Source: a virus
DNA: 64,000 nt
IMG/VR virus record: IMGVR_UViG_3300025108_000016
Reading direction: 5' to 3' (one strand)
In this document: piece after piece, positions 27,401-49,745 of the stretch
Numbering within the stretch: the stretch's first letter is position 1
Layout of the letters: the number at the start of each line of letters is the position of its first letter
The notes under the pieces: generated by a model
The model's database searches: none
Told to the model about the DNA's origin: nothing
Seen by the model: only the letters and a program-made list of their open reading frames with translations
Position numbers and translations under genes: made by a program

Positions 27401-29705
27401 TGTTTCTGTAATGAAAGTAACTAATACAGGATCTAATTATGATTCTGCAACTATCACCATTGAGTCTCCAAGTCTTCCTGGTGGCAGTAACGCTACTGGT
27501 AGTGTTAAAGTATCTGATGGTCTCATCTATGACACTACAATTACACTTTCTGGTAGAGGTTATACAGAACCACCTTCTGTTGTTATTAGAGGATCTGGTA
27601 TCGGTAACACTGGTGCTACTATTGAAACTGAAATTGAAATCACAGAACCTGCTGTCAGAATGGGTGTTGCTGAAGATGTGGATGGCGGTATCCCATCAGT
27701 AACTCCAACTAACTTTATGTTTGACTACCCTGTATTCTTGCAAAACAATACAGAATATTCTCTAGTTGTAGAAACTGATTCTAAAGACTATAACATTTGG
27801 GTATCTAAGTTAGGTGAAACTGAAATTGCTACAAATACAACAGTTACCACAAATCCATCACTAGGATCTGTTTACAAATCACAGAATACTGGTTCCTGGG
27901 TAGAGGATCTATTTGAAGATATTAAATTTACTCTATACAGAGCAGAGTTTGATATCTCTAATACTGCATCCATTGATCTCACAACTATTAGTCAAGGTTA
28001 TGAGAACATGATCGAGAATCCTCTAGAAACATATGCATTTGCTAATGCCAATGCAACATCATCTCTCTTTAAAAATAACAATAACATTATTAAAGTAAAT
28101 CATAAAAATCATGGTTTTGATTTAAACAATTCGTATGTATTCTTTAAAAATTTAGATACGACTGCTGGATTCACTCAAGGTTCTTTGAATACAACTCTAT
28201 TTAAAGTTTCCAATGCTGGTCTTGACACATTTAATATCAGTGGTATTGGTAGAGCAGCAGACACAATTACTGGTGGCGGCGCAAATGGATTGATTGCTTC
28301 TAATAAAAAATATGAAAGACTATTAGCACAGATTGCTTACTTGCAGTCTCCTTCTACAAACATCGAAACTTTTGTTAAATCAACAGATGTTATTGCTGTT
28401 GACTCTTCAACTGAAAACTATAACTCATATGGTCCAGTAGATTTTGAGAAGACTTTCCTAAATGAAGAGCAATTCTTTATTAATCAAAAAGTAATTGCTT
28501 CTGATATTAATGTTTTGATGAATGATTTAGAAAGAAGTCTTACTTACAGATTAAATCTATCATCCAACAAATCTTATCTTTCTCCAATTATTGATTTAAA
28601 TACCTCTTCTATTAAAATTTCTTCTAATAGAGTTGAGAATGCCAAAGGAAAGGAAGGAAGATATGGCAAGAGATTGCAAGTTGTAGAATTCTTCCCAGTA
28701 TATTCATTTGTTGTCGCTGGTAATAGTGTTGACGTAAGTCTTGGACAAACAGTAGAAGGTGTTGGTTACGAGGCAAGCGGTATTGAGGCATCTGGTGCTC
28801 GCGGAGAAATTGTATTCTGGAATCAATCAAACTCCACGATACTTGTCAAGGTTAAAAATCAAAGCAACTTTATATCTGGAGAGCAATTATTCTTCTCCAT
28901 TCAATCGCAAGCAGGTGAAAGTTTTGAAAATGACACCATTAGAATTTCTGGGGCGGCACCACAACTCATTAGACCTAACTTCAATTTTGATCAATTAGTG
29001 ACAGCAATTAATCCTTCTGCCACTACGACAAATTATGATAATTTAATTGCAGGAACAGTTACTTCTTGGGATGTTCCTAATCAAATATTGATTTTGGAAA
29101 ATGATAAAGAACCTGTCAATTCTGACTATAATTCAGATAACAAATCTGGTTCATTTGTTAGAGCACAGCAAGTTGCAGATCAAGCATCTGATATTCTTAG
29201 AGTTGGTGATCTTGTTTCCTGGTCTGGGTTGATAGCAGGTTATGAAAAGTTATACGAAATTAAATCTATGAGATTTACTGATGGAGTTGACTTTGTTCCT
29301 GAAAATAGTGCTAAAGAAACATCTGCTGTTGCTAAGTACACCACAAAAGAAATTGCTCTTAAGACTCAAGCATCAGGAATTGATGTTATCATTACTGCAA
29401 ACGTATCAAATTCTGAAAATATTAAACTATCCTACAAAACAAAAACAACTTCTGTTCAGAAGAAATTTGAGGATATTGAATGGATTCTATTTAATGATAC
29501 TGGTATGCCTATCAATCCAGAGAATGCAACTCCACAAAATACTATCTCCGCTCAGAAAGAAGAACAATCTGCTTATCAAGAGTTCAGATATAGTGTTGAC
29601 AACTTAGATGACTTTATTTCGTTTGGTGTCAAAGTTACCATGTCATCTGATGATCCTGCATATGTACCCAAAATTCAGGATATTAGAGTAGTTGCTTCGG
29701 TATGA
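21483..29705 (+). CDS. Large virion structural protein, VrlC/DUF4815-like
   Basis: MPQNTNLN.SPYF.DF....FYKVLFRPG..VQ.RELT; KRYTMKDIG.L..RV..LEYYTSL; NPLAQTF; late promoter CTAAATA at 21442-21448. Confidence 0.85.
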   Translation: MPQNTNLNASPYFEDFDSQNNFYKVLFRPGFAVQTRELTTLQSVLQTQLESFGRNVFKQGDLVVPGEVGFNTKLNYVKLSSVSEVAISDEAGNVVYQKYDISQLVGLKIQGVSSSVIASVIATEFGSDTESDTIYVNYLDSGASGDEERFRQGETLEVIGGVNSPLLVVGTDGVSLPTSISVTDPDTGIEQFIDSPALGFASAIKVEEGIYFVNGYFVRNAEQLLVVSKYYDAPSSKIGFKIVESLVTPEEDSSLYDNARGYSNFSAPGAHRLKISLELVKYGYYDLTDKNFIQLLLIKSGTIQKQIKANDYSLVEAAIAKKTFDESGDYVVEPFPLQVREYYQNDNNLGFYTADADGLVNGLSVNQASAKLLGTIGSGKAYIKGYEVKNKESKYLEIDKARDTIKRENQTLKTTGLTSFYISNVYGTTPLNAEGAELTSYPTLFLNSTYNDGSVGLNDTEANDGVKQTTNRRGQGYGVEEGVKTIYCQIEAGSGFGIADMTDANFKSTFKKLYFIKTRSSSQVTSFGEVDVLAFSIVSRPEISAAGANQFVEITVKGNRSELDIFVIDYDASASNKLRKLFKSQADVEDNSSELFDLRDYNETITPIVGIAKPKNIALKEISSGFNKDLDKIVSKGRLAGGLEQYNSIFDLSYFAPQFFTRILLETQITGDSFNPGKYIYGSISGAIAVIEGGTLATYSSVAKLFVTMVFGEFKGGETITSETGETIKIATDNTISHFIIPTRGDSYAAGTRIILDGVTFDESSIAIVRSGAGALDSIYVSDRNSTDTLYSRPPIVEFTGTVPTNAAIVTPVLFRNTVYTYSPKNIKSVFSQFGSGNANKFSADIELEKTGYVNTLSVTDFTFSGTAGYKFIECNGFGGDASKNLVQGDVVQFSDVTGAVYKYIVQYATRPDGTKRSRIYLDRVLQANAENASVVLQRPIIENPSGTLVFPTGDKQIKTLIDSSEDSKIKYYFRRDFITSAASASGNLTFAAQLPFGTQRFAPFSDKNFLITVLETGVAEHAIDSSGALQLFGGPLKKGDVVYVDPEYVTIAQSDSNLTAGSVTINFPENHFGDITALRTALEARAANPQSGDPDWTLPENNFPKMKLTATLEVSKAKPRLKTSILNKQIIVQSGGTSVVPLRGQELGGETIQITSYSDVFKLRYVYEGSVSSPPTVDAGGNLISGVDVSNKYTFDNGQRDTFYDVARLVLKPGLTAPTGQLVIAFDYFEHSQGDFCTIDSYLHEAGVTEKDIPSFNSSVSGLVSLKDVIDFRPKVDNSNILPGYQDKTFLSESDFLSFSGVSGIPANCPSDDSNLEFTIKYNKEQYLDRIDGVFLNTDGNFVVKKGNSSLNPSRPETISDSTPLYYLYIPAFTDSYRDVRIIPVENKRYTMKDIGKLNQRVERLEYYTSLSVLEQQTLNMQVTDDIGLDRFKCGFYVDNFETHKGDIKSIDHVCSIDTQQSVLRPQVSEDSFLVKEINTRNDQREVSGYVNNKGVLTLPYTNRRLLGNNFATKTINPNPFVVLQYVGDLSVDPNVDSWYDRSIAPLVTDNNTDLFVPFLAKEDLEVAFASLYNSFIVTWSGTERSFYNINPLSKTNTEISGEEVIKANVASSSNISPMNNEIGKGISSRTSRGKSVAAALQYFARSIPVKFTIRRLKPKTEVYVYLEGKKINRWVVPDIRFTGIPGNSLSTFNAPIITDESGNASGIVLIPAGKAPRESAAWTGEAETVSYDDSSEEVRITTGEKTLRFTSSATNRNKADVETFAETKFYASGLLPDNPASIVSTKPAYFKANEGTQLVTNNTEVEQKPNPLAQTFKVEEYDEGVFATGVDLYISKKSDSIPIRVYLTDVDSEKPGKNIIPGTEIVKEPYTYVKAYVSASVTVIKEENIIGVTTNASGPILKILDKNNNQLPVSEDNEIQLNNEQVYTFVLSNNNGTAFIANEELKLNSITVFNNANNTEISARIAKDSGVVSVMKVTNTGSNYDSATITIESPSLPGGSNATGSVKVSDGLIYDTTITLSGRGYTEPPSVVIRGSGIGNTGATIETEIEITEPAVRMGVAEDVDGGIPSVTPTNFMFDYPVFLQNNTEYSLVVETDSKDYNIWVSKLGETEIATNTTVTTNPSLGSVYKSQNTGSWVEDLFEDIKFTLYRAEFDISNTASIDLTTISQGYENMIENPLETYAFANANATSSLFKNNNNIIKVNHKNHGFDLNNSYVFFKNLDTTAGFTQGSLNTTLFKVSNAGLDTFNISGIGRAADTITGGGANGLIASNKKYERLLAQIAYLQSPSTNIETFVKSTDVIAVDSSTENYNSYGPVDFEKTFLNEEQFFINQKVIASDINVLMNDLERSLTYRLNLSSNKSYLSPIIDLNTSSIKISSNRVENAKGKEGRYGKRLQVVEFFPVYSFVVAGNSVDVSLGQTVEGVGYEASGIEASGARGEIVFWNQSNSTILVKVKNQSNFISGEQLFFSIQSQAGESFENDTIRISGAAPQLIRPNFNFDQLVTAINPSATTTNYDNLIAGTVTSWDVPNQILILENDKEPVNSDYNSDNKSGSFVRAQQVADQASDILRVGDLVSWSGLIAGYEKLYEIKSMRFTDGVDFVPENSAKETSAVAKYTTKEIALKTQASGIDVIITANVSNSENIKLSYKTKTTSVQKKFEDIEWILFNDTGMPINPENATPQNTISAQKEEQSAYQEFRYSVDNLDDFISFGVKVTMSSDDPAYVPKIQDIRVVASV

Positions 29706-29896
29706 TAAAGGTTGAAGGTCATGATGGTCTTTATCGAGACCCAGATTCGGGGGCGATTGTAACTACACGATCGTCTCCTAATAAGACCGCATCCCATACA
29801 ATCAAAGGAATGCGGACTGACATAAATACATTGAAGGAAGAACTATCTGATATTAAACATCTTCTTAGAGAGATATTAAGAAATGCCAGCAATTAA
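29702..29896 (+). CDS. Small conserved coiled-coil protein following the VrlC-like gene
   Basis: IKVEGH.GLYRD..SGAI...EL..IK.LL motif; coupled to both neighbours. Confidence 0.8.
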   Translation: MIKVEGHDGLYRDPDSGAIVTTRSSPNKTASHTIKGMRTDINTLKEELSDIKHLLREILRNASN

Positions 29897-32800
29897 CGTC
29901 GCAAAAACAGATACCTTTGAGATTCAAAGGCAGAAGATCAATAATATTGGAACGCAAATTTTCAATATTTCGGCTGGTGGTAGTGACCTGGCTACTGGAG
30001 AATTAAAACTAGGAGACGGAACTAAAACAGCTCCTTCTCTGGCATTCACTAGTGAAGGAACTTTAGGTTTATACAAACCAGCATCACAAGAGATTGGTTT
30101 TGTTGCTGCTGGTAAAGATATTATCAACTATAGACCAGATGGTATTTACTCTTTCCAAGATCTTTATATTAGAAAAAGAATTCTATTGAATTCTGGTCTT
30201 ACTATTCAGGATGAAGGTCAGAATTATGATCCAGGTGTATATACTGGTCTTGACCTAACAGGTGGTTCTGGTTCTAATGGTTTAATTGACATAGTTGTTG
30301 AAGCGTTTAATGGATCTGTAACTAATAATGGTAATAACTATCTTTCAGGAGATTATAGTGATATTCCTTTAGTTACTGATGGTAGTGGTTCTGGAGTTCA
30401 GGTCTCGTTTTCTACTGCCGCACCAGTAATTGCAATTGGAAACGCTGGTAGTGGTTATGATGATAATGAATATGGTTCTGTTGAACCAGTATCATCTGGA
30501 AATGGAACTGGTTTAGTTGTAACACTAATTGTTGCTGGTGGTGTATTGACATCTGTTTCTGTAGACGAAACAGGAAGTGGTCACGATTCATCCGATACAT
30601 TTACAATTGATAACACGACGCTAACTTATATTGATGAAGCTACAGGACTAGAGTCACAGAGTGGTGGTTCTGGCATTCAATTAACTATTAGTAATAACGT
30701 TAATGAAGTTGATGTAGCAACTTTAACTTTTCAAGAAAAAGGATCTGGTCACGCAGTTGGAAACAATCTAACAACTCCTGGTTCTATAACTAAAACAGCA
30801 GATTTGCCTGGTGCGGTAACTGGTCTTTCGACTACAGTTAGTACTGCTAGTGCAAACATTACAGTATCCTCAACTACTGGTATTGTTAATGGAATGATTG
30901 CTACCCAGACTGGTGGGGATGGCGCTATTGAAGGAAGTTCAGTTGTACAAAGTGTTATTAATGGAACCACTATTCAACTATCTGAGTTGCCAACAGTAGC
31001 TGGTACTGCAACTATTGATTTTACTAGTGATCCTGTTGACACTATAACTGTTAGTGACGCAAGTGATGTAATTAATGGTGGTATTGTTACTGGTGGTGGA
31101 TATACTGGCGTTGTTGGTGGCATTGATTACGATCTGAATGTTATTACTTTAGATCCAGCACCAGTAGGTGGTGCTCAAGCAGGAGTTACATTTACTATCG
31201 CTCCACCATACGGATCTGGTAGTGGATTTAACTTTGAAATTGATGCTGTTGGTGTTGTTACTACAGGAACTTTATCATCTTCGGGTGAAGGTAATGGTTA
31301 TGCTGTTGGTGATGTACTAACAATTAACCCACTCAGTGTTACTCAACCACTTGAATACGAGACTATAGTATTTCCTGGTCAGTTACTTACTGTTGCTTCT
31401 CCAATTAATGTTAGCGTTGGTAGTGTAATTAACGGATACACTCCACCTGATACCGAAGCAGGAACACCTGCAGAATATGGCGAAGACATGGAAGTCATTG
31501 CTATCACTGCAGGAAGTCCTGGTGCGGCAACTGGATTTATCGCAGGGTCTGCTACTCAATTAGATGCAGGTGCTGAATTCGGTATTAATAGTTCTGGAGT
31601 ATTCACAGTTGTTACTTACGATCCTGCAGGAAGATTTTATATTGATGATGGAAACGGATCAAATCTCCAACCAAATTACACACTATACTCAGGTAACACA
31701 TACTACTTCAATCAATCTGATGGAAGTTTTTCAGTTCACCCAATGAGTTTCTCGCAGCATCCTGATGGAACTAGGAATGTTGTTGAAAATATTACTACTA
31801 CGCTATCAGTAGGTTCAAATACTTTTACTGCTAGTAGTACTACTGGTATTCTAGAAGGAATGATTGTTGCTGTTACAGATGATGGTCCTGGTGGTGTTTC
31901 AATCGGAACAACCGTTACCAGTGTTGTTGGTACTACAATTACCATGTCCGAACCTGCTGTAGCAGATGGAGCAGCAACTCTAAGTTTCTCTGGTGCGGCA
32001 TATACTGATGGCGTAGTACAGGGTGCAGCAGGAAACCAAATTACAATTACCGCTGCAACACCAAATCCACTTTATTATTATTGCCCGAACCATAATGGAA
32101 TGGGTGGCGAACATACAATTGATTTAAACAACCCTAAAGTATTTGGTTCTAATTTAGAAATTCTAGTTTCATCTGTTGATGTTGATGATATTATTAGTGC
32201 GGATATTAACTTAGGTATTTTTGATGCTGTTAAGTTAACTTCAGAAACTTCAACCATTGGCGAAGGAACCTTCACGACAAGTGCTACTGCGCCTCTTGGT
32301 ACTATCGATACATTAAATTCAACTAATATTATTGCTGTTACTGGAGGAAATTTAAATCTCACTTCTGCAGCAGATCTTATATTGCAAGCTGTTGAAGTTA
32401 AATTTGGTACAGGTATTAAATTAAATTCTGCTCTCAATTTAATTGAGACTACTGGAGAAATTAAAACAACTACCAAACTTAATGTTAATGATAGACTCAG
32501 TATTGTTAATAACAATATTTCAACAACTTCTCTTGATGATATTGTACTAACTCCTGGTCTTGGTAAAGTTGCAAAAGTTGATACCACAACTGCATTTACA
32601 ATTCCTGTTGGTACTACAAATGATCGTCCTGGTGTGCTCTCTGTAGAGAGTGGTCAGATTAGATTTAATACAGATACTAATCAGTATGAGGGTTATAGTT
32701 CTACTGCTGGTGCATGGAATTCTCTTGGTGGTGTACGTGACCTAGACGGAAATACCTTTATTCTTGCCGAAGAATTTATCGGTGCTAACGATAATACACT

Positions 32801-34151
32801 TTATTTCGTTAATGATGCTGTCACAACAATGAAGTTGGACAGAAACTTCCTTGATTTCTTTACAACTAAAGATATTAAATCTACTAGAATTGGGGCACCA
32901 GACAATAGAAATTGGAACACAAATACTCCTGTTACTCAAGGAGAATATCTAAAGTTTGGTTTGAATCTATTTGAGGTAGTAACTGCTGGTGTTACTGGAA
33001 CATCAGGTAATGAACCTAGAAATACTACTGGAAATAATTTCAATAATGGTAGTTCTGTTCTTAAATTTGATTCTCTAGCAGTTGCTCCAATTGACTTTAA
33101 TGAAGTTGAGATTGTTAGGATTGGTTCAAGCAATCCAATTCCTCTAGAGATTAATGGCGATTTGAAATTGTTTAACAATACAATTTCTACTAATGTTAGC
33201 GACCTTGAGTTTGTTCCAAATCCAGGACAAAAAGTTAAAATTGATTCCAACACATCTCTTGTAGTTCCAGTTGGAGACTCCAACTCTAGAGGAAATGCCG
33301 AGACAGGTTCTATTCGCTATAACACAAGTGACCTAACATATGAAGGTTATGATGGATCTCAGTGGGGATCTCTCGGTGGTGTTAAAGACGTTGATCAGAA
33401 CACTTACATTATTCCTGAAACTGCTCCTGGCGCAAATGAAAATATTCTATACTTCTATAATAATGGTCTGAACACCCTGCAACTTACTGAAAATGCATTA
33501 GAGTTTCGTGACATTGATACCATCACTTCTTTGGGAGCAGGTGGTATCAAAGATTTGCTTAATATTAATGCAAATAAAGTTACATTTGATAATCTCGCAA
33601 CTACGCTTGATAATACGAGTGCTGACTCTACCTTCTTATTTTGCACAAAACAAAATTTTGATTTAGGTTTATCTGCTGGTTTGACTACAGATACATTGGT
33701 CAGACTTACAGCTGACGGAGATGTATTCTTCAACTTAGGTTTTGGAACAGGAAATTACAATGATCTCAAGATTCTTGATAGCGAACTGAGTGCATTTGAA
33801 CTACAAAAATTTGCAGTTCGCACTGAGCAAAGTAATCTAGTTAAAGATACTATTGATCAAGGTGCCACAGTTCTTTATAATCCTGCAGTAGAAGCATCGG
33901 CAAAGGTAACACTAACAGCACATAATAAAACTTCTGGAAACAAAGAATTTTTAGAGTTTGCTGTTATTGATAACGGCACTGATATTTCATATACTGAATA
34001 TAATAATCTTAAGACTGGACAAGAAATTGTTTCAGTCGAATTCGACTTTGATGCTAATAGTGATGTTCGCATTACATATACATTGGATACGAATTTAAAT
34101 ACAGGTAATGTAGTAGACGTTACAGTCGTCAATCAAGTAACTAAGAGGTAA
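29883..34151 (+). CDS. Large fibre/baseplate-associated structural protein (1422 aa)
   Basis: N-terminal TDTFE.QRQKIN; Gly/Thr-rich beta repeats; two P.G....R...G.IR(F/Y)NT....EGY....W.SLGGV modules; cupredoxin-like motif. Confidence 0.8.
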   Translation: MPAINVAKTDTFEIQRQKINNIGTQIFNISAGGSDLATGELKLGDGTKTAPSLAFTSEGTLGLYKPASQEIGFVAAGKDIINYRPDGIYSFQDLYIRKRILLNSGLTIQDEGQNYDPGVYTGLDLTGGSGSNGLIDIVVEAFNGSVTNNGNNYLSGDYSDIPLVTDGSGSGVQVSFSTAAPVIAIGNAGSGYDDNEYGSVEPVSSGNGTGLVVTLIVAGGVLTSVSVDETGSGHDSSDTFTIDNTTLTYIDEATGLESQSGGSGIQLTISNNVNEVDVATLTFQEKGSGHAVGNNLTTPGSITKTADLPGAVTGLSTTVSTASANITVSSTTGIVNGMIATQTGGDGAIEGSSVVQSVINGTTIQLSELPTVAGTATIDFTSDPVDTITVSDASDVINGGIVTGGGYTGVVGGIDYDLNVITLDPAPVGGAQAGVTFTIAPPYGSGSGFNFEIDAVGVVTTGTLSSSGEGNGYAVGDVLTINPLSVTQPLEYETIVFPGQLLTVASPINVSVGSVINGYTPPDTEAGTPAEYGEDMEVIAITAGSPGAATGFIAGSATQLDAGAEFGINSSGVFTVVTYDPAGRFYIDDGNGSNLQPNYTLYSGNTYYFNQSDGSFSVHPMSFSQHPDGTRNVVENITTTLSVGSNTFTASSTTGILEGMIVAVTDDGPGGVSIGTTVTSVVGTTITMSEPAVADGAATLSFSGAAYTDGVVQGAAGNQITITAATPNPLYYYCPNHNGMGGEHTIDLNNPKVFGSNLEILVSSVDVDDIISADINLGIFDAVKLTSETSTIGEGTFTTSATAPLGTIDTLNSTNIIAVTGGNLNLTSAADLILQAVEVKFGTGIKLNSALNLIETTGEIKTTTKLNVNDRLSIVNNNISTTSLDDIVLTPGLGKVAKVDTTTAFTIPVGTTNDRPGVLSVESGQIRFNTDTNQYEGYSSTAGAWNSLGGVRDLDGNTFILAEEFIGANDNTLYFVNDAVTTMKLDRNFLDFFTTKDIKSTRIGAPDNRNWNTNTPVTQGEYLKFGLNLFEVVTAGVTGTSGNEPRNTTGNNFNNGSSVLKFDSLAVAPIDFNEVEIVRIGSSNPIPLEINGDLKLFNNTISTNVSDLEFVPNPGQKVKIDSNTSLVVPVGDSNSRGNAETGSIRYNTSDLTYEGYDGSQWGSLGGVKDVDQNTYIIPETAPGANENILYFYNNGLNTLQLTENALEFRDIDTITSLGAGGIKDLLNINANKVTFDNLATTLDNTSADSTFLFCTKQNFDLGLSAGLTTDTLVRLTADGDVFFNLGFGTGNYNDLKILDSELSAFELQKFAVRTEQSNLVKDTIDQGATVLYNPAVEASAKVTLTAHNKTSGNKEFLEFAVIDNGTDISYTEYNNLKTGQEIVSVEFDFDANSDVRITYTLDTNLNTGNVVDVTVVNQVTKR

Positions 34152-34711: not shown

Positions 34712-37700
34712 ATGAGTTTTCAGTTAAATTCCGACAGAGAAACTATTAGAGCCATTGCTCCTACTCTAATTGGATCTCAAGAATTATCCATTAGGGCAGG
34801 TTCTGGTTCTGACGAAAAGGAAGTACTCAGAACTCTACTTGATCCAGGGACAGACTTGCCGCGAGTCGGTATCAATAGGACTGGAAATAGAATTGACAGA
34901 GTTGTAGTAAATTTAGGTGGTACTGGATACACTATTCAACCAACTGTTAATATTGCTCCACCACCAGCTGGTGGTACTCAAGCAGTAGGTTCTGCAATTA
35001 TTGATGAAGGTTTTGTTACTGCCGTTCTTATTGACAATCCTGGTAAAGGATACATCACTGCTCCTGCCGTAACAATTACTGGTGGTAATGGTACAGGTGC
35101 TCAAGTCGAGGCATTCCTTGATACTGTTGATTTTGAACTTGACATTAATGGTGCTATTAGAACATCTACGTCGATCATTTCAGACACGGCGAGAATTCTA
35201 AACCTAGATATTGATAACTTTATCACTCCAGATGCTAAGTTTAGAGCACCTGATCTGAAAACTTATATGAACAACACGGGCATCCCATGGACTGCCCAAA
35301 CTATTGTTCAGAAAGATGCTTATAGGTATAGGGGTCCAAACGTTTATCAAGCACTGAATGCTGGTGAAACGGGAACTGTACCACCTCTACATAAAGATGG
35401 TATTGAAACCAACAATGAAGTTCAATTCAAGCATATTGGTTTTAGAGTAACTGATCCTTCAGCGTTCCAGTATAATGAGACTGGAGAATCTGGAGAGTTC
35501 CCTCGTTCTATCACACCTCTACTTGGTGATAGATCTACTAAAATTGCAACCACAGAATACGTCCTCAACCTAGCAACGAATGACGTTGGTGGTCGTATTT
35601 ACGTTTCAGCACAGATTGGTTCTGACCTAAACGATGGTCGTTCTGCTGTTGCTCCTGTTAGAACAATCAAGAAGGCAGCACAACTTGCATGGGCAACTCC
35701 TGGTGTCAAGGAGACTCTTATTGTTTCTGGTGGTGATTACGTAGAAGATAATCCAATTTCACTACCACCTGATGCATCAGTTGTTGGTGATAACCTACGT
35801 TTGGTTATCATTCGTCCTGCTAACCCAAGGAAGCACATCTTCAAGTTCGGTGACAAGAACTATGTCATTGGTGTTACGTATCGCGACCAAGTTGACTCTA
35901 CTGGAGATGCAGTAGCAACTTGGGACTTTGCGATGGTCTTTGACGACAAGCAAAGAATCAATTATGACTATACAGCAAATGGAGATTTCGGAACCTCTTT
36001 CCCAATTGGTACACAAATCTTTGGACCAGAAAAATTCCGTGCAGACTTCCAAACAAACACAGGTCTTGCAAATCTTACATCAAATTTAGCAGTCAAAGGT
36101 ATCAACACTGGTGCTGAAGGTATTATTAATGAAGTAAACTTCGGATCTATCGTTGGACCACAAGCTTACATTTCTGGTAAACTTGATTTTTCTGTTACCA
36201 GTGGCGCATTTACAGCGGGTGAAACTTTCTTGTTTGGTGGTACAGGGTCTATCAAATGGACTCCAAATACATCATATACAATTGGACAACTAGTTTGGGC
36301 AACTGATAATGTTTATCAAGTAGCTGTTGCTGGTACTTCTGCTGCATCATCTCCTATTCATACTACGGGAACAGTTGCTACTGGTCCCGATACACTAGAA
36401 CTTACGTTCCTTAGAGATGCATACGAATTTGTATCTACTGATATTAGATCAATTAGAGCAGAAGGCGAAGTTGTTTTTGAAGATACCAACATTACTGATG
36501 CTCTACCTCTCGTAAGAATTGATTTCTCCAAGCAAGGCACTGCAGAAGTTTCAACTGGTGGTTTTCAAGACCCTAATGTTGTAGAAGATAATGGTGGTAT
36601 TATATTCTACACCAATGCTTTGGTTGGTAGGCAGAACACTCATGATTTTAAGGAAGGAGATGAAATCGTTATTGAGGGAATGCCTACCAGTTCTCCTGAT
36701 CTATCTTTCCTGAATGGAAAGCAAAGAATTTACAAAGTTCTGGAAGATGCTGATGGTCGTTCAAGACGTTTTGTAATCCCCAAGAAAACTACGATTACTA
36801 CAACTGATAATTTTGATCCAGGTCAATTTTCATCTGTAAAACGTTATGGTAAGTCAATTACCATCTCCTTGCTGAACTCTCCTAATAGATTCCCAATGGC
36901 AACACCTGTTGCCAGAAGATTTCAAGATGCTTGTTTGCAAATTAGAAACAACGTAGAATTTATTGCAGATGAAGTTGTTGGAAAAGTTAATGATCAATTT
37001 AAGAAAGAATATTATTCTGTCTACGAAATTGGTGGCACTCCAGATTCTACACTTACTCCAACTGATGTAGACTATGATCCTGCTACTGGCATCGCTACAT
37101 TTACAGTAACTAGTCATGGACTTAGTATTGGAGATGGCGTTAGAATTACGGATGATTCTATCACACAAACCTGTGCGATGGATGGAAATAGAACAGAACA
37201 TACTTCACCTAATTCTCATCATTATTCTAGCGGAAAGACTCTACCAATTCGTTCTTCAGGATTTACAACTGATCAGTTTGAACTTTTTGTTGGCATCTCT
37301 GGTCCTGACCAGCAATTTACACCTACTGATGTAACTTACGATCCTGCAACTGGAAATGTAAATCTAACAATTGGTGCTCATACATTATCTGTTGGAGAAG
37401 GTATTGTTATTGATGACAATTCATTGTCCTTTACGTGTGACATGGATGGCGATCAGTCAGTTAAGAGTTATCCACGTCCTGGTATCGATCCTTTTGCTAG
37501 TAGATCTATTCCTATTACGGAAGTTTCTGAAACTAGTATTACTATCAATGCAGGAATTTCTGGTCCCAATAAGTATTTCCAACCATCTGCTGTAAACTAT
37601 AACGCTGCGACTGGTGACATGACTGTCACAGTTGGTCAGCATGGACTCGGAGTTGGACGCAATGTTGTTCTTGAAGATAACTCATTCACATTTACTTGTG

Positions 37701-40700
37701 ATCAAAATGGATATGCAACCGAGCATACTTATCCACGTCCTGGATCAGATCCTTATGCAGGTCAGTCAATTGCTATTACTGATGTAGGAACCAATTCCCT
37801 AACAGTATCTGGAGCAACTTACACCGCTTCAAATGGTCAAGTTGATATTACTACTTCCGCACCACACGGAATGCAAGAAGGTGATTATATCTTGTTTGAA
37901 GATAACTCACTAACCTTTACGTGTAACCTGGATGGAAATGTAGTCAGTAAAAATTATCCACGTCCTGGTTATGACTATCCTAGTGGAAGATGGTTGCCAA
38001 TTAGCAACATTTCAGCAAGTGGTTTTAGAGTTAATATTGGATCTTCTAGTTATGTTGGAGTACATTCTTTTGTTTCCGCAACAAATAATGGTCTAAAGCA
38101 TCAAGATGGAACATTCACAATTAATGTTGGTAATGCAGGTACTGCGTCAGGATCAAATCATCAGTTTGTAAGTGCAACTGCTCAAGCAATTAAGCATGAA
38201 CCGCAATCTGTTCATACGTTTACTGGTTCAACATCGAATTCAGTAAAACATCTACCTCAATCTGCACATACGTTTGTAAGATCTGCGCCAAACTCTCTAT
38301 CTATTGGTGGTTCTACTCTCAAAATTTATCTCGGAACATCTACTTTCGTACACACGTATGTAAGTGGTGGTGTTGTAACTTACAATTCTCAAAATTATAA
38401 TATTACTAATTTTGTTTACGATAATATTTCTACTGGTGAAGCAACTATTACCCTAGCAAGTCCAGTTGCTGCTTTGTCTGAAGATGCTACCGTTAGAATT
38501 TCAGATTTAGTTGTAGAGTGTGTAGTAGATGGTGTTACTACCCAAAAAACTTATCCAAGTTTCAGCATCCCTGTAAACGATAACAAGTGTCGTAGAGATG
38601 TTGGACATTTCATTAGTGCAATTACTAGAGACCTTGAGTTTGGTAGCAACTATAATGTTATTGATGCAGCGAAAAAATATATTGATGGTACTAACACCCA
38701 GATTGATTTTGTCAATAACGAAATTATTCAGACAGTACGTGCTCTAGAATATGCAAGAGAACTGATCACTTTTGCTATGAGAAAGTGGCGTACTGGAACT
38801 GGAGCTCCTGGTCAAGCAATTTATGTTCCTCAGTATTCTCAACTTGATAGATATTTTGACCCAACAATTATTGATGATATTTCAACTCCTGCTTGTGCTA
38901 ACGTAGCATCTGCTATTGATACACTATCATATCTGTTTATTGATGTTCTTGCTAATAATACCAATGGAACTTATCTAGATGGTGCTTATTTAATTGCTAG
39001 AAATAGAGATTTGATTGCTGATGAAGCATACAAACTAGCAATGATCCAATACCCTTCTCTTGGATTAGGTAACATTGATGAGCGTAAGTGTCGTAGAGAC
39101 ATCAACCATATCATTAGTGCAATTATTAGAGATCTATCACTGGGAGGAAATTTTGGTATTGTCAATGCAGCAGAATTCTATTTCACAGGAAATGCTCTAA
39201 CTGGAATACCTGCATCTGAACTTGCTCCTACAAGGTTTGCATTCGAGAAAGCAAGAGATTTGTGTATCGCAGCAATGCGTAATTGGACAGATGCAGCTGG
39301 TGCTGCAATTGCCACACCTAATTCAGATATTCCTCAATTCACTGATAGTTCAATTCTTGTAGATCCTACTGGTGTACCTTTATGTGCAAACGTTGAAGCA
39401 TCTATCACAACTGCATTCCAACTACTAGATGACATCTTGAGTGGCACTACTTCTCCTGGTGCTACAGTAAGAGATACAGGAACTTTATTTGATACTTCAA
39501 CTATTGCTACTTTCCCTGATAGCATCATTTACGATAGTAAAGGTACAAAACTAACTCCACGTTCTGATTTTGCTGATAATCCTATCATTGAAGCATCTCC
39601 ATACACCCAGAACGCATCTGTTATCTCCTTCCTAGGTGGTGGCGGTGCTGAGGTTGATGGAGACAAGGTTAAGCAACCTAACTGCCCCTTCCCTGGTCTT
39701 GAGTTAGACGGATCAGCATCCTTCCCCAATCAGGGTAAGTCGATGGTTGCATCAGCCTTTACTATCGTTTCTTTCGGTGGTACAGGTTACAAAATTACTA
39801 ATGATGGTTATGTTCAGTTAGTTTCTGTATTCGTTATCTTCTGTGCCGATGGCGTCCTTGCTGAGTCTGGTGGTTATTGTTCAATTACAAACTCTGCTAC
39901 TAACTTTGGTATCTTTGCTCTCCGTGGCATTGGATTTAGAAAAGATGCATATGAATTTGATGTTGGTACAATTAGTAATGTATCTTCCACTCCTACAGGC
40001 AGAACAATCTTCACAGTTTCTGGTTTAGGAAGAGAACCACTTGAGCACTATATTGTTAAAGTTGATGGATTCTCGAACGTAGATCCAGATATTGAATACT
40101 TTATTGATACCGTAGAAGGAGTAACAGTTGGTCCTCCTTTCACTGCTCAACTAACACTTGAGTCTGGTTCTGGTGGTGGCGCGGCTTTGAAAAATGACGC
40201 TACTGATAATGCAGTTTCTGTTGGTACTTTGGTTGGTGAAACAGTAAGACTTCACAGACCATCTATTGTTAACTCGTCTTCACATACGTGGGAATTTGCA
40301 GGATCAGGAACCAACTATAATGCACTGCCAGAGAACGGCGGTACTAAAATTGAAGCATACGAACAAGTTTCTGAAAATTATGGTCGTGTTTATGTTTCTG
40401 GTACTGACGAACTAGGAGACTTTAAAGTTGGTACATTTGCGAGAATTGAAAACAGAACTGGTAATATTACCTTCACGGGTACTGTTACAATTTCGGAAGT
40501 TGAATTCTTGAAACTAAAAGGTGGCGACGTTGTTGTTACTGGTTTCGACGCATCCAATACACTTGGTGGTGCAAATACTACTAACTCTAAACTGCCAACA
40601 CAGAAAGCAGTTAAAGATTACATCACCAATAACCTCGGTCCATATCTAAACAAACCATATTCAACTAACCCTGTTCCTAGAGCACTGGTTGAACTTACTG

Positions 40701-43700
40701 ATTCTGGTAAGATCTCAGAAGATCAGATCCCACCTCTTCGTCCTTTCCAAGTATTTACAGTTGCAAACCAATCAGAAAGAGTTGCTATTGAAGGAGCACT
40801 TGCTGGTGACATCGCAATCCAACAGGATACTAACTCTTCATTCATTCTAAACAATGATAATGATAGTTTGTTTGTATCGTTCCCAATTGATTCCAGTCTT
40901 CAGTTCACCATTGGTGACATCTTTACTGGTAGTAATTCAGGCGGTAAAATTCAATCAACTGAATATAGAGAAGGTGTTGTTTATCAAATCAGTATTACTG
41001 ATAATGGTTCTGGTTACGTTACTCCTCCTGTTGTAACTATCTCTGGTGGTAATCCTCAAGCAGGTGCTGTTTCAGCATTTGCTACTTGTTCGATTGCAAA
41101 TGGTCAAGTTGTCCTAGTTGAGATTCAACTATTCAATAACTTTATTGGTGGTAAAGGATACACTACTCCTCCTACAGTTACGTTCTCTCCTCCAGCAGGT
41201 TCTGGAACGCAAGCAGCTGGTTCTGCTATAATTGAGTCCAGACTCTATGGTGATATCGTCAACAATATCAAGATAGAAGATACAGATGATATTGAATCTA
41301 GTGATGTTCCTTCCGAGACTATTGCTATTACCCGTGTTATTAATACTTCTGCGAGTGATAGTAATAACTGGGTATCTCTATCTTCCAATCAAATTGCTGC
41401 TAATGACATTACATCTGGTGTTATTTCTACAGCAAGACTAGCATTTACTTCAGATGCTGCAAACTCCTTCACATTCCTTAGAGGAGATCAGTCATATAAT
41501 CCTGTTATTCAATCACTTAAAGGTGCTGAGACTAGATATTTTGCTAAGATTACTTCACAAGCAAACAGCAGTTCTTCGCAATTAGTTTTTGCTACTAATG
41601 CTGATGTACTTCTTGGTCATGAAGTTGTAGCAAACATTAATGGTATTCAACCTAATACTAATATCTCTGGTATTCTTACTGCTGCTGGAACAACTACAGT
41701 TTCAATTGATAATCCACTAACAGCTACAATTCCAGTCAACACAGTTATTGAATTTGAGCGTGGTTCATCTCCACTAACATTTGAATCATCACTTACTCAA
41801 GGAGACTTTATCGAATCCGTTGTTATTGCAGCGGGTGGATCTGGATTTACTGATGGTCAATACTTTGATATAGAACTAGATGGTGGATCTGGTACAGGAC
41901 TCAAAGCAAATATTATTGTAAGTGGTGGTACAGTTTCAGATCTAACACTTACTTCTACTGGTGTTGGATTCCTAAATGACTTCACAGTCAGTTCTGCTCC
42001 AGGAGCTATTGGTTCTGGTACTGGTTTAGTTCTACTTGCAAAACTCAGTACAGTTAATAAGCAATTTGCAAACGTTGCTGTTGATATCTCTAGAGTTTCT
42101 GATCTAACTATTTCTGCTGACGAATACGGAACAATTGGTGTTGCTAGATTCTATAAAGATCAATTTAAAATTGGTCTTGCTGGTAATGGTTCTATTCAAC
42201 TTAAGACTGGAGCAGACTCTGGTCTTGATGCTGACCTTCTCGATGGTGTTCAAGGATCTTTCTACCTTAATGCAGGTAATCTAAACGCAGGTGTTCTGCC
42301 CGTTGATAGATTATCTGGTACTTATAATATTAATATTGCTAACCAGTCTGGTAGTACATTAAGACTCAAGTCTTCTACAAGTAACCCAGCATCGAATCCA
42401 AATCCTGATTCGTTTAACGTTGGTATTATTGCAGATACTAGAAATAATGCTGCTGATGGTCTAGCAGATGGTGGCACACGCCACGTTACATTGACTATCA
42501 GAAATGGTGGATCTGGTTTTGATGCAACATTTGGTGGTGTAAGACAACTTGCATTCACTGATAACGATAATATGTATCTTAGAGGTTCTGGTTCTACACT
42601 AGCAACCTTTAGTACATGGGCAAAGATCTGGTCTTCTCAGAATGATGGCGTCAACTCTGGACTTGATGCTGATAAACTTGATGGTCGTCAAGGAACTTTC
42701 TATCAGAATGCTATCAATACAAATGAAGGTATATTCAGTGATCTTAGAATGCCTTCTCACCAAACACAGAAGGACTTCCAAGATAGAGTTAGAATTCTTG
42801 ATTGGACAGGTCAACCAAGATATAAAATTCTTGTTAGAGATGAACTACTAACTGCATCCCCATTCTTAGTTGGTTTGCCAGTTAACTTGTATGATGCTCA
42901 AGGTCTTGCTCCTGGTCGTATTTCAATTACTGATATTGCCATCAACCAAGATGCCAATGATCCTTCTAATAATTTCACTCTAATTACAGGTACACTAACA
43001 ACAGGTAACTTTATTGGAGCGATTGCAATTGGTGATACCGCAATCAACTATCCTTTCCAAGATTTTAGTATTGCGGACCTAGACGCTAATGCAGATGGAC
43101 TACCCGATGGTACATTTGAAGTTGGAGGACTTGAAAGTACTGGTGGTAATGCCAGATTGAAACTTGGTAGAAACGATGGTATCTCTGCTTCAGATCCTTC
43201 CGTCTACTTCAGATCTTCTCTCCAACCATCAACTAACTACAGCTCCGCAATCATTGCTACTGGTGGTAATTCTACTGATGGTTCTGGTTCTCTGGAATTC
43301 AAAGTAGCAAATGTAAATCAGTTAACTATACTAGGTAACATTCTTTGGAATGAAGGTAACGTAGTATTCAACTCCTCTAATGTATTATCAACAACATCAC
43401 TGAAGTCTGCAGTATCAAGAGACACCAGTGGAAACTTTAGTGCTGGAACAATCACTGCTTCTCTAACTGGTGCTGCTTCGCTTAACGTTCTTAAGGCAGG
43501 CGATACAATGTCAGGTCTGCTCACCATCGGTGGAGTAGCGGCAGGAAGTCAAGCATTGAGCGTATCTGGCAGAGGAGATTTCTTAAGCAATATTACAGTT
43601 GCTGCTGACCTAACAGTCAACACTAACACATTGCACGTTGATGCTACAGATGATACAGTAAGCATTGGTACAACTACTTCTGATTCTGCAGTAAAACTTC

Positions 43701-44734
43701 TGATTGTAGAAGATGGAGATCAAGATGTTGTCCTGAGAATGTACTCATCCTACAACGTTGGTGGTGGTCCAAATCAACGCGATTCAATAATTCAATTGCT
43801 GGGTCAGGATGGCACTACTGATGAAGGTCTTGAACTGAAGTATGACAACTCTGTTGGTGATGTATACTTTAAACAACTATACAATTCGCTGACAACACAA
43901 GTTGCAATGCATTTCAGCACTGGTGCATTTACTGACGCTCTAACGATTACTGGTAACGGCAATCTGGGTGTACAGATGACTGCCAACGATGCCTATGAGT
44001 TGGATGTAAATGGATCAGCAAGAGTTAAGACAGCAGTTCAAGTTGGTCGTGCAGATAGTAATGCTGGTGCTCCTGTAATTTACGCAGGTGCAACTGGTGC
44101 ATCTTCTGGAACTCCTGGTAACTATCTAAGTAACTTCCGTGTTGGTAATCAACTACTACAATCAGATACTTTTGAAATCACACCTAGTGATGGTGCCGTT
44201 GCAGGAGGTTTAACTTGGAAGAGTACACCAGCACTTGCAATCCAAGGTTCTGAGAACAGAGTTGCAATCAACACTCTCCTATTTGGTGGTACTGATACTA
44301 CAGTAGATCCACAGGTCCAGAGAGAATATCAACTGAACATCCAAGGCGATATCAACATCAATGGTCTGGTCTTCCAGAACAACGCTGAGTTCGTTACTTC
44401 CAGATGGACAGAATCTGCAAATGAACTGGATATCTACAGAGAGTCTAAGGTATGGATTAACCCAGATTCCTCTGTTAATGGATTTACTGGTGACCCAGAT
44501 TATGATCTACAAATTGGTGGTGGTGGTAATGATGGACACCTTGGACTAAATGGTGTCATGTATATTAGAGACACCCCCCAATGGATTGACACCACAGGCA
44601 TCATCAAAAACTCTGCTAACACATTGGCAGAAGATGTAACTATTCCTGCAAATGCTAACGCAATGTCCATTGGTCCGATTACAATTCAACCAGGCGTTGT
44701 AGTTGATGTCGTAGGTAACTGGGTAATTATGTGA
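34712..44734 (+). CDS. Long tail fibre / receptor-binding protein (3340 aa)
   Basis: Late promoter CTAAATA at 34666-34672; STKIATTEYV, beta-helix entry YVS...GSD.NDG....P.RTIKKA, two SGLDAD.LDG motifs, internal repeats, C-terminal NAMSIGPITI motif. Confidence 0.85.
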   Translation: MSFQLNSDRETIRAIAPTLIGSQELSIRAGSGSDEKEVLRTLLDPGTDLPRVGINRTGNRIDRVVVNLGGTGYTIQPTVNIAPPPAGGTQAVGSAIIDEGFVTAVLIDNPGKGYITAPAVTITGGNGTGAQVEAFLDTVDFELDINGAIRTSTSIISDTARILNLDIDNFITPDAKFRAPDLKTYMNNTGIPWTAQTIVQKDAYRYRGPNVYQALNAGETGTVPPLHKDGIETNNEVQFKHIGFRVTDPSAFQYNETGESGEFPRSITPLLGDRSTKIATTEYVLNLATNDVGGRIYVSAQIGSDLNDGRSAVAPVRTIKKAAQLAWATPGVKETLIVSGGDYVEDNPISLPPDASVVGDNLRLVIIRPANPRKHIFKFGDKNYVIGVTYRDQVDSTGDAVATWDFAMVFDDKQRINYDYTANGDFGTSFPIGTQIFGPEKFRADFQTNTGLANLTSNLAVKGINTGAEGIINEVNFGSIVGPQAYISGKLDFSVTSGAFTAGETFLFGGTGSIKWTPNTSYTIGQLVWATDNVYQVAVAGTSAASSPIHTTGTVATGPDTLELTFLRDAYEFVSTDIRSIRAEGEVVFEDTNITDALPLVRIDFSKQGTAEVSTGGFQDPNVVEDNGGIIFYTNALVGRQNTHDFKEGDEIVIEGMPTSSPDLSFLNGKQRIYKVLEDADGRSRRFVIPKKTTITTTDNFDPGQFSSVKRYGKSITISLLNSPNRFPMATPVARRFQDACLQIRNNVEFIADEVVGKVNDQFKKEYYSVYEIGGTPDSTLTPTDVDYDPATGIATFTVTSHGLSIGDGVRITDDSITQTCAMDGNRTEHTSPNSHHYSSGKTLPIRSSGFTTDQFELFVGISGPDQQFTPTDVTYDPATGNVNLTIGAHTLSVGEGIVIDDNSLSFTCDMDGDQSVKSYPRPGIDPFASRSIPITEVSETSITINAGISGPNKYFQPSAVNYNAATGDMTVTVGQHGLGVGRNVVLEDNSFTFTCDQNGYATEHTYPRPGSDPYAGQSIAITDVGTNSLTVSGATYTASNGQVDITTSAPHGMQEGDYILFEDNSLTFTCNLDGNVVSKNYPRPGYDYPSGRWLPISNISASGFRVNIGSSSYVGVHSFVSATNNGLKHQDGTFTINVGNAGTASGSNHQFVSATAQAIKHEPQSVHTFTGSTSNSVKHLPQSAHTFVRSAPNSLSIGGSTLKIYLGTSTFVHTYVSGGVVTYNSQNYNITNFVYDNISTGEATITLASPVAALSEDATVRISDLVVECVVDGVTTQKTYPSFSIPVNDNKCRRDVGHFISAITRDLEFGSNYNVIDAAKKYIDGTNTQIDFVNNEIIQTVRALEYARELITFAMRKWRTGTGAPGQAIYVPQYSQLDRYFDPTIIDDISTPACANVASAIDTLSYLFIDVLANNTNGTYLDGAYLIARNRDLIADEAYKLAMIQYPSLGLGNIDERKCRRDINHIISAIIRDLSLGGNFGIVNAAEFYFTGNALTGIPASELAPTRFAFEKARDLCIAAMRNWTDAAGAAIATPNSDIPQFTDSSILVDPTGVPLCANVEASITTAFQLLDDILSGTTSPGATVRDTGTLFDTSTIATFPDSIIYDSKGTKLTPRSDFADNPIIEASPYTQNASVISFLGGGGAEVDGDKVKQPNCPFPGLELDGSASFPNQGKSMVASAFTIVSFGGTGYKITNDGYVQLVSVFVIFCADGVLAESGGYCSITNSATNFGIFALRGIGFRKDAYEFDVGTISNVSSTPTGRTIFTVSGLGREPLEHYIVKVDGFSNVDPDIEYFIDTVEGVTVGPPFTAQLTLESGSGGGAALKNDATDNAVSVGTLVGETVRLHRPSIVNSSSHTWEFAGSGTNYNALPENGGTKIEAYEQVSENYGRVYVSGTDELGDFKVGTFARIENRTGNITFTGTVTISEVEFLKLKGGDVVVTGFDASNTLGGANTTNSKLPTQKAVKDYITNNLGPYLNKPYSTNPVPRALVELTDSGKISEDQIPPLRPFQVFTVANQSERVAIEGALAGDIAIQQDTNSSFILNNDNDSLFVSFPIDSSLQFTIGDIFTGSNSGGKIQSTEYREGVVYQISITDNGSGYVTPPVVTISGGNPQAGAVSAFATCSIANGQVVLVEIQLFNNFIGGKGYTTPPTVTFSPPAGSGTQAAGSAIIESRLYGDIVNNIKIEDTDDIESSDVPSETIAITRVINTSASDSNNWVSLSSNQIAANDITSGVISTARLAFTSDAANSFTFLRGDQSYNPVIQSLKGAETRYFAKITSQANSSSSQLVFATNADVLLGHEVVANINGIQPNTNISGILTAAGTTTVSIDNPLTATIPVNTVIEFERGSSPLTFESSLTQGDFIESVVIAAGGSGFTDGQYFDIELDGGSGTGLKANIIVSGGTVSDLTLTSTGVGFLNDFTVSSAPGAIGSGTGLVLLAKLSTVNKQFANVAVDISRVSDLTISADEYGTIGVARFYKDQFKIGLAGNGSIQLKTGADSGLDADLLDGVQGSFYLNAGNLNAGVLPVDRLSGTYNINIANQSGSTLRLKSSTSNPASNPNPDSFNVGIIADTRNNAADGLADGGTRHVTLTIRNGGSGFDATFGGVRQLAFTDNDNMYLRGSGSTLATFSTWAKIWSSQNDGVNSGLDADKLDGRQGTFYQNAINTNEGIFSDLRMPSHQTQKDFQDRVRILDWTGQPRYKILVRDELLTASPFLVGLPVNLYDAQGLAPGRISITDIAINQDANDPSNNFTLITGTLTTGNFIGAIAIGDTAINYPFQDFSIADLDANADGLPDGTFEVGGLESTGGNARLKLGRNDGISASDPSVYFRSSLQPSTNYSSAIIATGGNSTDGSGSLEFKVANVNQLTILGNILWNEGNVVFNSSNVLSTTSLKSAVSRDTSGNFSAGTITASLTGAASLNVLKAGDTMSGLLTIGGVAAGSQALSVSGRGDFLSNITVAADLTVNTNTLHVDATDDTVSIGTTTSDSAVKLLIVEDGDQDVVLRMYSSYNVGGGPNQRDSIIQLLGQDGTTDEGLELKYDNSVGDVYFKQLYNSLTTQVAMHFSTGAFTDALTITGNGNLGVQMTANDAYELDVNGSARVKTAVQVGRADSNAGAPVIYAGATGASSGTPGNYLSNFRVGNQLLQSDTFEITPSDGAVAGGLTWKSTPALAIQGSENRVAINTLLFGGTDTTVDPQVQREYQLNIQGDININGLVFQNNAEFVTSRWTESANELDIYRESKVWINPDSSVNGFTGDPDYDLQIGGGGNDGHLGLNGVMYIRDTPQWIDTTGIIKNSANTLAEDVTIPANANAMSIGPITIQPGVVVDVVGNWVIM

Positions 44735-44773: not shown

Positions 44774-45832
44774 ATGTCTAGTCTAAACGTAGGAACTGTA
44801 ACTCTGTCTAACGGACTGACACTTCCTTCATATACATCAAGTCCAGATAACCGACCATCACATAGTGCTGGCAGGACTATCTATGATTCGACTTCGGATA
44901 CTATTCAAATATCCGATGGATCACAATGGATTAGTGCGGGTTCTGCAGGTAGTGGTTTGATTACTGCTACTGGTGGTGAGATTACATTCTCTGGTGGATA
45001 TAAAGTTCACACATGGTACAATGTTGGAGAGTATAATTTTAATGTAACGGGAGCTGCTGGTGGTGCTACTGCCGAAGTTCTTGTGGCAGCAGGTGGTGGT
45101 TGTGGCGGAACTATTGGTGGAGGAGGCGGCGGCGGTGGCGTTTGCTACCACGGATCTTATCCAATCACAGTTGGTTCTTATGATGTAAAAGTGGGAGCAG
45201 GTGGACAGACACCTCTAGCTGGACATCCTGCCAACAAAGGAACTAGTGGATCTCCTTCTAAGTTTGGAACGCATACTGCATTTGGTGGTGGTTCTGCTGG
45301 ATCATGGGGTCCTAATGCTAGAGAAACTGGAGAACCAGGTGGTTCTGGTGGCGGCGCATCTGGTCCTGGTCCTAGACAACCACAAAGAGGAGAAGCAACT
45401 CAAGGTACTGCTCCTGGTGGTGGTGTTACTCACGGAAATCCTGGTTATAGAAACGGCAATAATGTTTCTGGAACACACTCTGGTACTCATACTGGCGGTG
45501 GCGGCGGTGGTGCTAACCCCAACAACACAGTTAATGGAAGAGTTGGAGGTGATGGAATCACTTATATGGGACTAACTGTTGGTGGTGGAGGTGGCGGAGG
45601 AAGTCACGAAAACTATGGTAATGCTCCAATCACAACTCCTGCTGCTCCTGGTGGCGGTGGTCGTGGTGGATCTAGATCATCGCAATATGCAGGTGGCGGT
45701 GGACAAGGTTGGGGTGAACCAGGACAAGTTAACACTGGTGGTGGCGGCGGAGGCGGCTGGTATAATGGTGGTGGTAATGGTCAAGGAGCTGCTGGTGGTC
45801 CTGGCATCGTTCGTGTTCGTCATACAATCTAA
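44774..45832 (+). CDS. Glycine-rich (polyglycine-II-type) putative fibre tip adhesin
   Basis: ATGG......YKVHTW, VLVAAGGG.GG...GGGGGGG, NTGGGGGGG and GGPGIVRVR glycine-rich domain pattern. Confidence 0.8.
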   Translation: MSSLNVGTVTLSNGLTLPSYTSSPDNRPSHSAGRTIYDSTSDTIQISDGSQWISAGSAGSGLITATGGEITFSGGYKVHTWYNVGEYNFNVTGAAGGATAEVLVAAGGGCGGTIGGGGGGGGVCYHGSYPITVGSYDVKVGAGGQTPLAGHPANKGTSGSPSKFGTHTAFGGGSAGSWGPNARETGEPGGSGGGASGPGPRQPQRGEATQGTAPGGGVTHGNPGYRNGNNVSGTHSGTHTGGGGGGANPNNTVNGRVGGDGITYMGLTVGGGGGGGSHENYGNAPITTPAAPGGGGRGGSRSSQYAGGGGQGWGEPGQVNTGGGGGGGWYNGGGNGQGAAGGPGIVRVRHTI

Positions 45833-45835
45833 TAT

Positions 45836-48546: not shown

Positions 48547-48548
48547 TT

Positions 48549-49726: not shown

Positions 49727-49745
49727 CAAAAAGTCTTGACAGAAC

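Follow-up and report, generated by a model that had tools for sequence, protein, structure and literature searches.

In the phycobiliproteins (PBPs) a bilin is held by Cys82/84 together with a neighbouring Arg and Asp. A PBP-type domain is also found within a large, multidomain structural protein, the core-membrane linker ApcE (LCM) of the cellular phycobilisome, where a single, loop-interrupted domain with a displaced attachment cysteine binds phycocyanobilin without a separate lyase. PBP relatives acting outside phycobilisomes have been described as the BBAGs of heterotrophic bacteria, which are small, soluble cellular proteins (Rockwell et al. 2023, PMC10151467); in that paper phages are named only for PcyX and PcyA, and no virion protein is reported. 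Here we describe two PBP-like domains in a giant tail-fibre or baseplate-type protein, encoded in a stretch of viral DNA of 64,000 nucleotides (nt), IMG/VR record IMGVR_UViG_3300025108_000016, which is called the window in its full length. Like the BBAGs, with which they are compared by description only, these domains are PBP relatives outside phycobilisomes. Unlike the domain of ApcE, they retain the canonical Cys84 position and reside in a virion protein. No description of PBP-like domains in cyanophage virion proteins was found in the full-text searches, which left out most subscription journals. The domains may touch on two open questions about cyanophages, the light sensor in light-dependent adsorption and the purpose of the widespread phage cpeT, whose role and substrate were left as an open question by Sullivan 2010.

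Two phycobiliprotein-like domains in a giant virion protein

Both repeats in the fibre protein are genuine PBP homologues, and the homology and the fold are secure. When the window was scanned in six frames with a domain hidden Markov model (HMM), built by iterated search among 121 homologues, exactly three pieces were found, all within the open reading frame (ORF) 34712-44734. The gene and the parts of the two domains are the following, with protein positions in amino acids (aa).

34712..44734, plus strand: giant virion structural protein (tail-fibre or baseplate type) of 3340 aa, from the ORF list and its translation; hosts both PBP-like domains
36920..37036, plus strand: N-terminal helices of copy 1 (PBP helices A/B), aa 738-776; HMM positions 1-34, E 2e-8; D-A-x-L-x-I-x-N-N-x-x-F-I motif
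37037..38500, plus strand: insert of 488 aa in the B-E loop of copy 1; length varies among orthologues; about five repeats
38501..38965, plus strand: remainder of copy 1 (helices E to H), aa 1265-1419; HMM positions 22-159, E 2e-48; K-C-R-R-D and C-A-N-V
38972..39466, plus strand: copy 2, a complete PBP-like domain, aa 1421-1585; HMM positions 1-159 on aa 1422-1582, E 3e-60; K-C-R-R-D and C-A-N-V

With a single sequence from the window, phmmer against the PDB gave phycoerythrin and phycocyanin alpha chains as the seven best matches, phycoerythrin alpha first (E 0.007-0.009). A family profile (A1), for which 44 domain copies were taken from this protein and from viral contigs, reached a best E of 1.4e-6 when searched against 177,635 PDB sequences, and all 60 matches listed were PBPs. 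Three more distant relatives lie above the gathering score of PF00502, namely the proteins P0035 (81.6 bits) and P0012 (25.6 bits) and the giant protein of locus L030 (29.7 bits).

The AlphaFold (AF2) model of aa 1421-1585 is of high quality (pLDDT 90.2, pTM 0.88), and the top matches of Foldseek to it were all PBPs. VIA-align superimposed the model on Gloeobacter phycoerythrin beta (2vjh_B) with Z 17.1 and a root-mean-square deviation of 1.9 Å over 133 residues, pairing residues 1-157 of the model with residues 37-177 of the chain, and its 50 best entries were all PBP beta chains or their close relatives. The X/Y helices are absent, as the structural alignment with PBP chains begins only at their residue 35-38 and copy 2 comes directly after copy 1. 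The original prediction, made from the sequence alone, had spoken of PBP globin cores from which the X/Y helices are missing. The first part is upheld by the profile search, by the relatives that pass the Pfam threshold and by the globin-like model with its structural matches, and the second by the point at which the structural alignment starts. Judged from the model, the fibre domain is a beta-subunit-like PBP core without X/Y helices.

A comparison with the PBP beta subunits (CpeB, CpcB and the cryptophyte beta chains; PF00502) shows the same all-helical, globin-like core from helix A to helix H (A, B, E, F', F/G and H), a K-C-x-R-D site common to both at the Cys82/84 position, and a long G-H loop. 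In the clade of the window there is also a cysteine just before the last helix, where beta subunits have Cys155, an equivalence that the fold suggests. In contrast to the beta subunits, the phage domains have no X/Y helices and hence no canonical alpha/beta pairing, they are parts of virion proteins of 2000-7000 aa, with 2-35 copies per protein, and they bear large insertions in the B-E and G-H loops. They are only 15-20% identical to the beta subunits, and the window copies fall below the Pfam threshold.

The motifs on which the prediction was built were all found in ORF 34712-44734 on the plus strand and at the codons given for them. The cysteines of K-C-R-R-D are Cys1293 (nt 38588) and Cys1460 (nt 39089), those of C-A-N-V are Cys1395 (nt 38894) and Cys1558 (nt 39383), and QDACLQIRNNVEFIADEV is aa 738-755 (nt 36923-36976) in the N-terminal part of copy 1. 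The repeats are two helical domains of about 160 aa each, of which copy 2 is contiguous and copy 1 is split; the C-terminal part of copy 1 is 39% identical to copy 2 (E 2e-28). The HMM pieces, positions 1-34 and then 22-159, imply that copy 1 is a single domain in which 488 additional residues separate the second helix from the long central one. That copy 1 is split, as had been proposed, is also borne out by the orthologues, where the insert is about 490 aa long (L001-L012, L020), 35-80 aa long (L013, L014, L018, L019, L021-L026) or missing altogether (L015-L017). The N-terminal helix of the window shares 65% identity (E 8e-17) with the beginning of the unsplit copy in L015. The 42-aa N-helix had no BLASTP match in copy 2, and the question was settled by the HMM and the orthologue comparison.

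The putative pigment site and the two cysteines

In the HMMER alignments, K-C-R-R-D of the fibre domain falls on K-C-A/L-R-D of phycoerythrin alpha, which is the Cys82/84 attachment site with Arg86 and Asp87. Among the close homologues (596 unique copies) the cysteine is present in 432 of 443, the Arg in 411 of 441 and the Asp in 439 of 440. In a diverse set of 1618 copies, drawn from 147 representatives after clustering at 50% identity, the conservation is similar (Cys 95.6%, Arg 93.2%, Asp 98.7%). The proposal that the first cysteine is a Cys84-type site with its Arg and Asp agrees with the alignment, and C-x-R-D is 93-99% conserved in about 1500 diverse copies.

In the AF2 model the last helix (139-157) starts directly after the second cysteine (Cys138 of the domain), which would thus sit, topologically, where the beta subunits have Cys155. 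Its conservation is much lower than that of the first cysteine, Arg and Asp, with 161 of 450 diverse copies (about 36%) having it. The prediction had recognised three blocks of PBP sequence. The first two (helices A/B and E) stand, far beyond chance in the PDB searches, but block 3, a phycocyanin-beta Cys155 motif round the second cysteine, has no sequence support and is undetectable with a profile of the C-terminal half (A2), which found no PBP in the PDB at E ≤ 10.

Among the close copies covering both positions, both cysteines are present in 290, only the first in 22 and only the second in 1, and none was counted with neither; the corresponding numbers in the diverse set are 159, 275, 2 and 14. 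A disulfide between the two cysteines of a domain is ruled out, since the first is kept without the second in the 22 close and 275 diverse copies. The retention of the first cysteine where the second is missing implies that they are no obligate disulfide pair and that the first has an independent role.

Distribution and association with cpeT

A tblastn search with copy 2 matched 342 of 50,697 phage records, and all 342 are cyanophages. Among 1.84 billion representative proteins, 1433 representatives matched at E ≤ 0.001. Most are giants, with up to 35 domain copies in one protein; 26-31 copies are found in P0005, P0009 and P0065, and no loci related to P0005 were found. In BFVD the fold is present in many cyanophage tail or structural proteins, none of them named phycobiliprotein.

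Cyanophage CpeT is a homologue of the T-type lyases (PF06206, phrog_488). It is encoded by a separate gene, occurs in the same genomes as the domain family and is a neighbour of the giants that carry PBP domains. All five records first tested had cpeT, including two small, distant fragments picked solely for their fibre gene. Both cpeT and the domain are present in 13 genomes or records (Sf-CH11, G001, G003, G004, Syn1, P-SSM4, P-HM1, P-HM2, S-PM2, Syn9, MED4-213, S-ShM2 and ACG-2014f) and both are absent from seven (P-SSM2, S-SM2, S-SSM7, P-TIM68, S-CREM2, S-B68 and S-CRM01), with no discordant case; for S-ShM2 the status of cpeT is that of Table 3 in Sullivan 2010. ACG-2014f appeared at first to be an exception, but it has a compact CpeT-like ORF of 139 aa, and its domains keep C-K-R-D and C-A-R-D. 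The phage from which the window comes probably also has cpeT, judging from its near relatives G001 and Sf-CH11, with the gene placed outside the window. A tblastn search with one CpeT found only 129 records, a number that is not comparable with the 342 domain records because the CpeT family is divergent.

The gene order points in the same direction. In L027, L029, L030 and L031, cpeT is located immediately 5' of the giant gene with PBP domains and on the same strand, and in L033 it lies 1.9 kb upstream of it. The order in L030 is baseplate hub, small ORFs, cpeT, giant gene, short tail fibre and tail collar; Syn1, Sf-CH11, S-PM2 and S-CAM1 have a like order with cpeT near the giant gene, and in P-HM2 and Syn9 cpeT adjoins gp5 or tail-fibre genes. 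The suggested link to a CpeT lyase gains support from the co-distribution and the gene order. In Syn1, cpeT was found at L055 2939-3478 (PF06206 119.6 bits, RefSeq Syn1_028); Table 3 of Sullivan 2010 lists Syn1 without cpeT.

A link to the bilin synthesis genes ho1 and pebS/pcyA had also been suggested, but their distribution does not follow that of the domain. Neither PF05996 nor PF01126 is present in the nearest record G001 or in Sf-CH11, G003 and G004, and the coupling was rejected since P-SSM2 and S-SSM7, which carry pebS and ho1 (Sullivan 2010, Table 3), have no domain. Cluster C cyanophages carry an S-type lyase, and S-CREM2, S-B68 and S-CRM01 are without the domain; no PBP-like domain was found in the long tail fibre gp85 of S-CREM2.

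Bilin binding or structural module

The near-invariance of the Cys84-site triad makes retention of a bilin the most likely reading, and we favour it tentatively. It can be argued for on the grounds that the triad, invariant across a very divergent family of many copies, is exactly the ancestral bilin site, that the first cysteine is kept alone, that the family occurs only in phages whose hosts are rich in bilins, and that the domain co-occurs with, and often adjoins, a homologue of the bilin lyases. What the analysis shows is the homology, the fold, the conserved residues, the restriction to cyanophages and the co-distribution and gene order with cpeT, while bilin attachment, a role for CpeT and any function of the pigment are inferred. 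The repeats are PBP-derived, beta-like globin domains without the X/Y pairing helices, built into the giant tail or baseplate protein, and they would still bind a bilin, made by the host and attached through a thioether in the infected cell. The CpeT-like protein of the phage would be a candidate for the lyase or for a bilin chaperone, and the tail apparatus of the finished particle would then be equipped with chromophores, where the pigment could serve, for example, to stabilise the fold or to make adsorption light-gated.

Several observations weigh against bilin binding. The X/Y helices required for alpha/beta pairing are gone, the second cysteine is absent from about two thirds of the diverse copies, and the C-terminal half finds no PBP by sequence. 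The window's own domains match no Pfam family even at E ≤ 10. In a sub-family of first copies in giants adjacent to cpeT (L030 7634-8122, L032 1800-2321, L033 7754-8278 and L037 1840-2313), C-x-R-D is replaced by C-x-D-D, so that the Cys and the following Asp are kept and the Arg has become Asp. The number of copies, up to 35 per protein, suits a structural building block. T-type lyases are known for serving Cys155-type and not Cys84-type sites. In a tree of the portal protein, the seven genomes without cpeT and the domain form two clades, which means that about two coincident changes suffice and that the co-distribution, although consistent with functional coupling, is statistically weak. Shared descent, or a single co-capture from the phycoerythrin operon of a host, could be the source of it, and the synteny near gp5 is shared by descent.

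It is quite possible that the domains are a structural module without pigment, a PBP core that was acquired from a host on a single occasion and then employed as a rigid helical element in giant tail proteins. The conserved Cys, Arg and Asp would then serve folding, salt bridges between domains or disulfides between chains in the extracellular virion, and the connection to cpeT would be historical, by co-capture or shared descent, with phage CpeT acting on host proteins. The copies, 2-35 per protein, nested and bearing inserts, behave like a structural repeat, which together with the loss of the X/Y helices and the two events sufficient for the cpeT pattern fits such a module. So does the confident fold that AF2 gives without a ligand, as well as the family-specific invariant residues Asp54, Asn60 and Tyr70, for which we know of no bilin role. 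However, a purely structural block does not readily account for invariant residues that are exactly the bilin-site triad of the PBPs, or for a cpeT that is retained in the tail module over a deep divergence and missing where the domains are missing, and a disulfide within the domain is excluded. Phage CpeT is also reported to bind phycoerythrobilin tightly without transferring it to the beta subunit of the host. The C-x-D-D variants could also be taken to mean that the pocket holds another ligand, such as a different tetrapyrrole or a component of the host surface, or that the cysteine is otherwise modified, and genes for 2OG-Fe(II) oxygenases and a tryptophan halogenase and one annotated as ferrochelatase adjoin the fibre gene. 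We find this improbable, as nothing points to any other ligand, the triad equals the bilin site residue for residue, and the phage gene associated with the domain is a bilin lyase homologue. A resemblance to the PBPs by chance or convergence of a helical repeat, for which the lack of a Pfam match of the window's own domains could speak, can practically be dismissed: it is refuted by the relatives above the Pfam cut-off, by the profile search, with PBPs only among the matches listed, and by the extent of the VIA-align superposition.

Bilin retention, if true, would make this the first pigment-bearing, and possibly light-sensing, phage particle to our knowledge, and the phycobiliprotein fold would have gained a new use. 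If there is no bilin, the domains are still a clear reuse of a light-harvesting fold of the host as a building block of the virion.

Light-dependent adsorption

Darkness prevents the adsorption of P-HM1 and P-HM2; P-SSM2 still adsorbs without light, though less than with it, and so do the podoviruses P-SSP7 and P-GSP1 adsorb in the dark (Liu et al. 2019, PMC6628666). The adsorption of S-PM2 is light dependent, and photosynthesis of the host is not needed for it (PMC6628666, citing Jia et al. 2010). The domain matches number five in P-HM1, five in P-HM2 and ten in S-PM2, and there are none in P-SSM2; the three light-dependent adsorbers carry both the domain and cpeT, and P-SSM2 carries neither. 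The suggested link between the domain and light-dependent adsorption is thus in agreement with the few published phenotypes, but the match, three phages against one and confounded by ancestry, is a lead and not a test.

A PBP-type domain with an intact triad, in tail proteins, restricted to cyanophages and associated with cpeT, could bear on both the role of cpeT and the light sensor. In its widest form the proposal would be that many T4-like cyanophages have a biliprotein as their tail apparatus, that CpeT matures virion proteins and not the antennae of the host, and that the bilin is a photoreceptor that gates adsorption. We consider this unlikely as a whole, but a photoreceptor in the virion would account for the failure of P-HM1, P-HM2 and S-PM2 to adsorb in the dark and for the ability of P-SSM2 to do so.

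Insertions, nested domains and neighbouring genes

The ORF 34712-44734 matches phrog_5342, "tail fiber protein", at E 0, and it has 80% nucleotide identity with SfCH11_90, a "structural protein" of Synechococcus phage Sf-CH11. Its neighbourhood is the structural module of a T4-like cyanomyovirus, with terminase, sheath, tube and portal downstream, and the source is a marine T4-like cyanophage. Three other giant ORFs belong to the same module, 9202-18963 (3253 aa), 21483-29705 (2740 aa) and 29883-34151 (1422 aa), and the domain HMM found no PBP-like domain in them. In the N-terminal part of the fibre protein, aa 516-545 (36257-36346) give a weak match to CBM_5_12 (E 0.017), below the cut-off.

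The insert of 488 aa in copy 1 is made up of about five repeats, each 75-90 aa long and bearing a motif of the type T-C-x-x-D-G (Cys821, 909, 996, 1071 and 1270), and it matched nothing in Pfam or among the PDB sequences. In several orthologues (L018-L026) copy 2 is interrupted as well, near the G-H loop at HMM positions of about 128-140, and the insert before its final helix is shortest in L021-L026, at about 40 aa, and longest in L018-L020, at about 350 aa. The G-H loop of copy 2 is a second permissive site for insertion.

The near relatives of the window phage carry a second protein with PBP domains outside the region equivalent to the window, Syn1_032 (L055 4184-16237) and SfCH11_27 (L054 5109-18059), whose genes sit just downstream of cpeT. 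These giants have at least five copies each, and some of the domains are nested in the order of two N-terminal helix pairs, a complete domain and then both remainders, as if domains had been inserted into each other's B-E loop.

Directly 3' of the fibre gene, the window at 44774-50960 codes for two glycine-rich proteins (PF21722), two 2OG-Fe(II) oxygenases, a flavin-dependent tryptophan halogenase (PF04820, E 1.5e-101) and a 202-aa ORF, whose counterpart in Sf-CH11 carries the annotation ferrochelatase. The enzymes encoded here may be modifiers of virion proteins.

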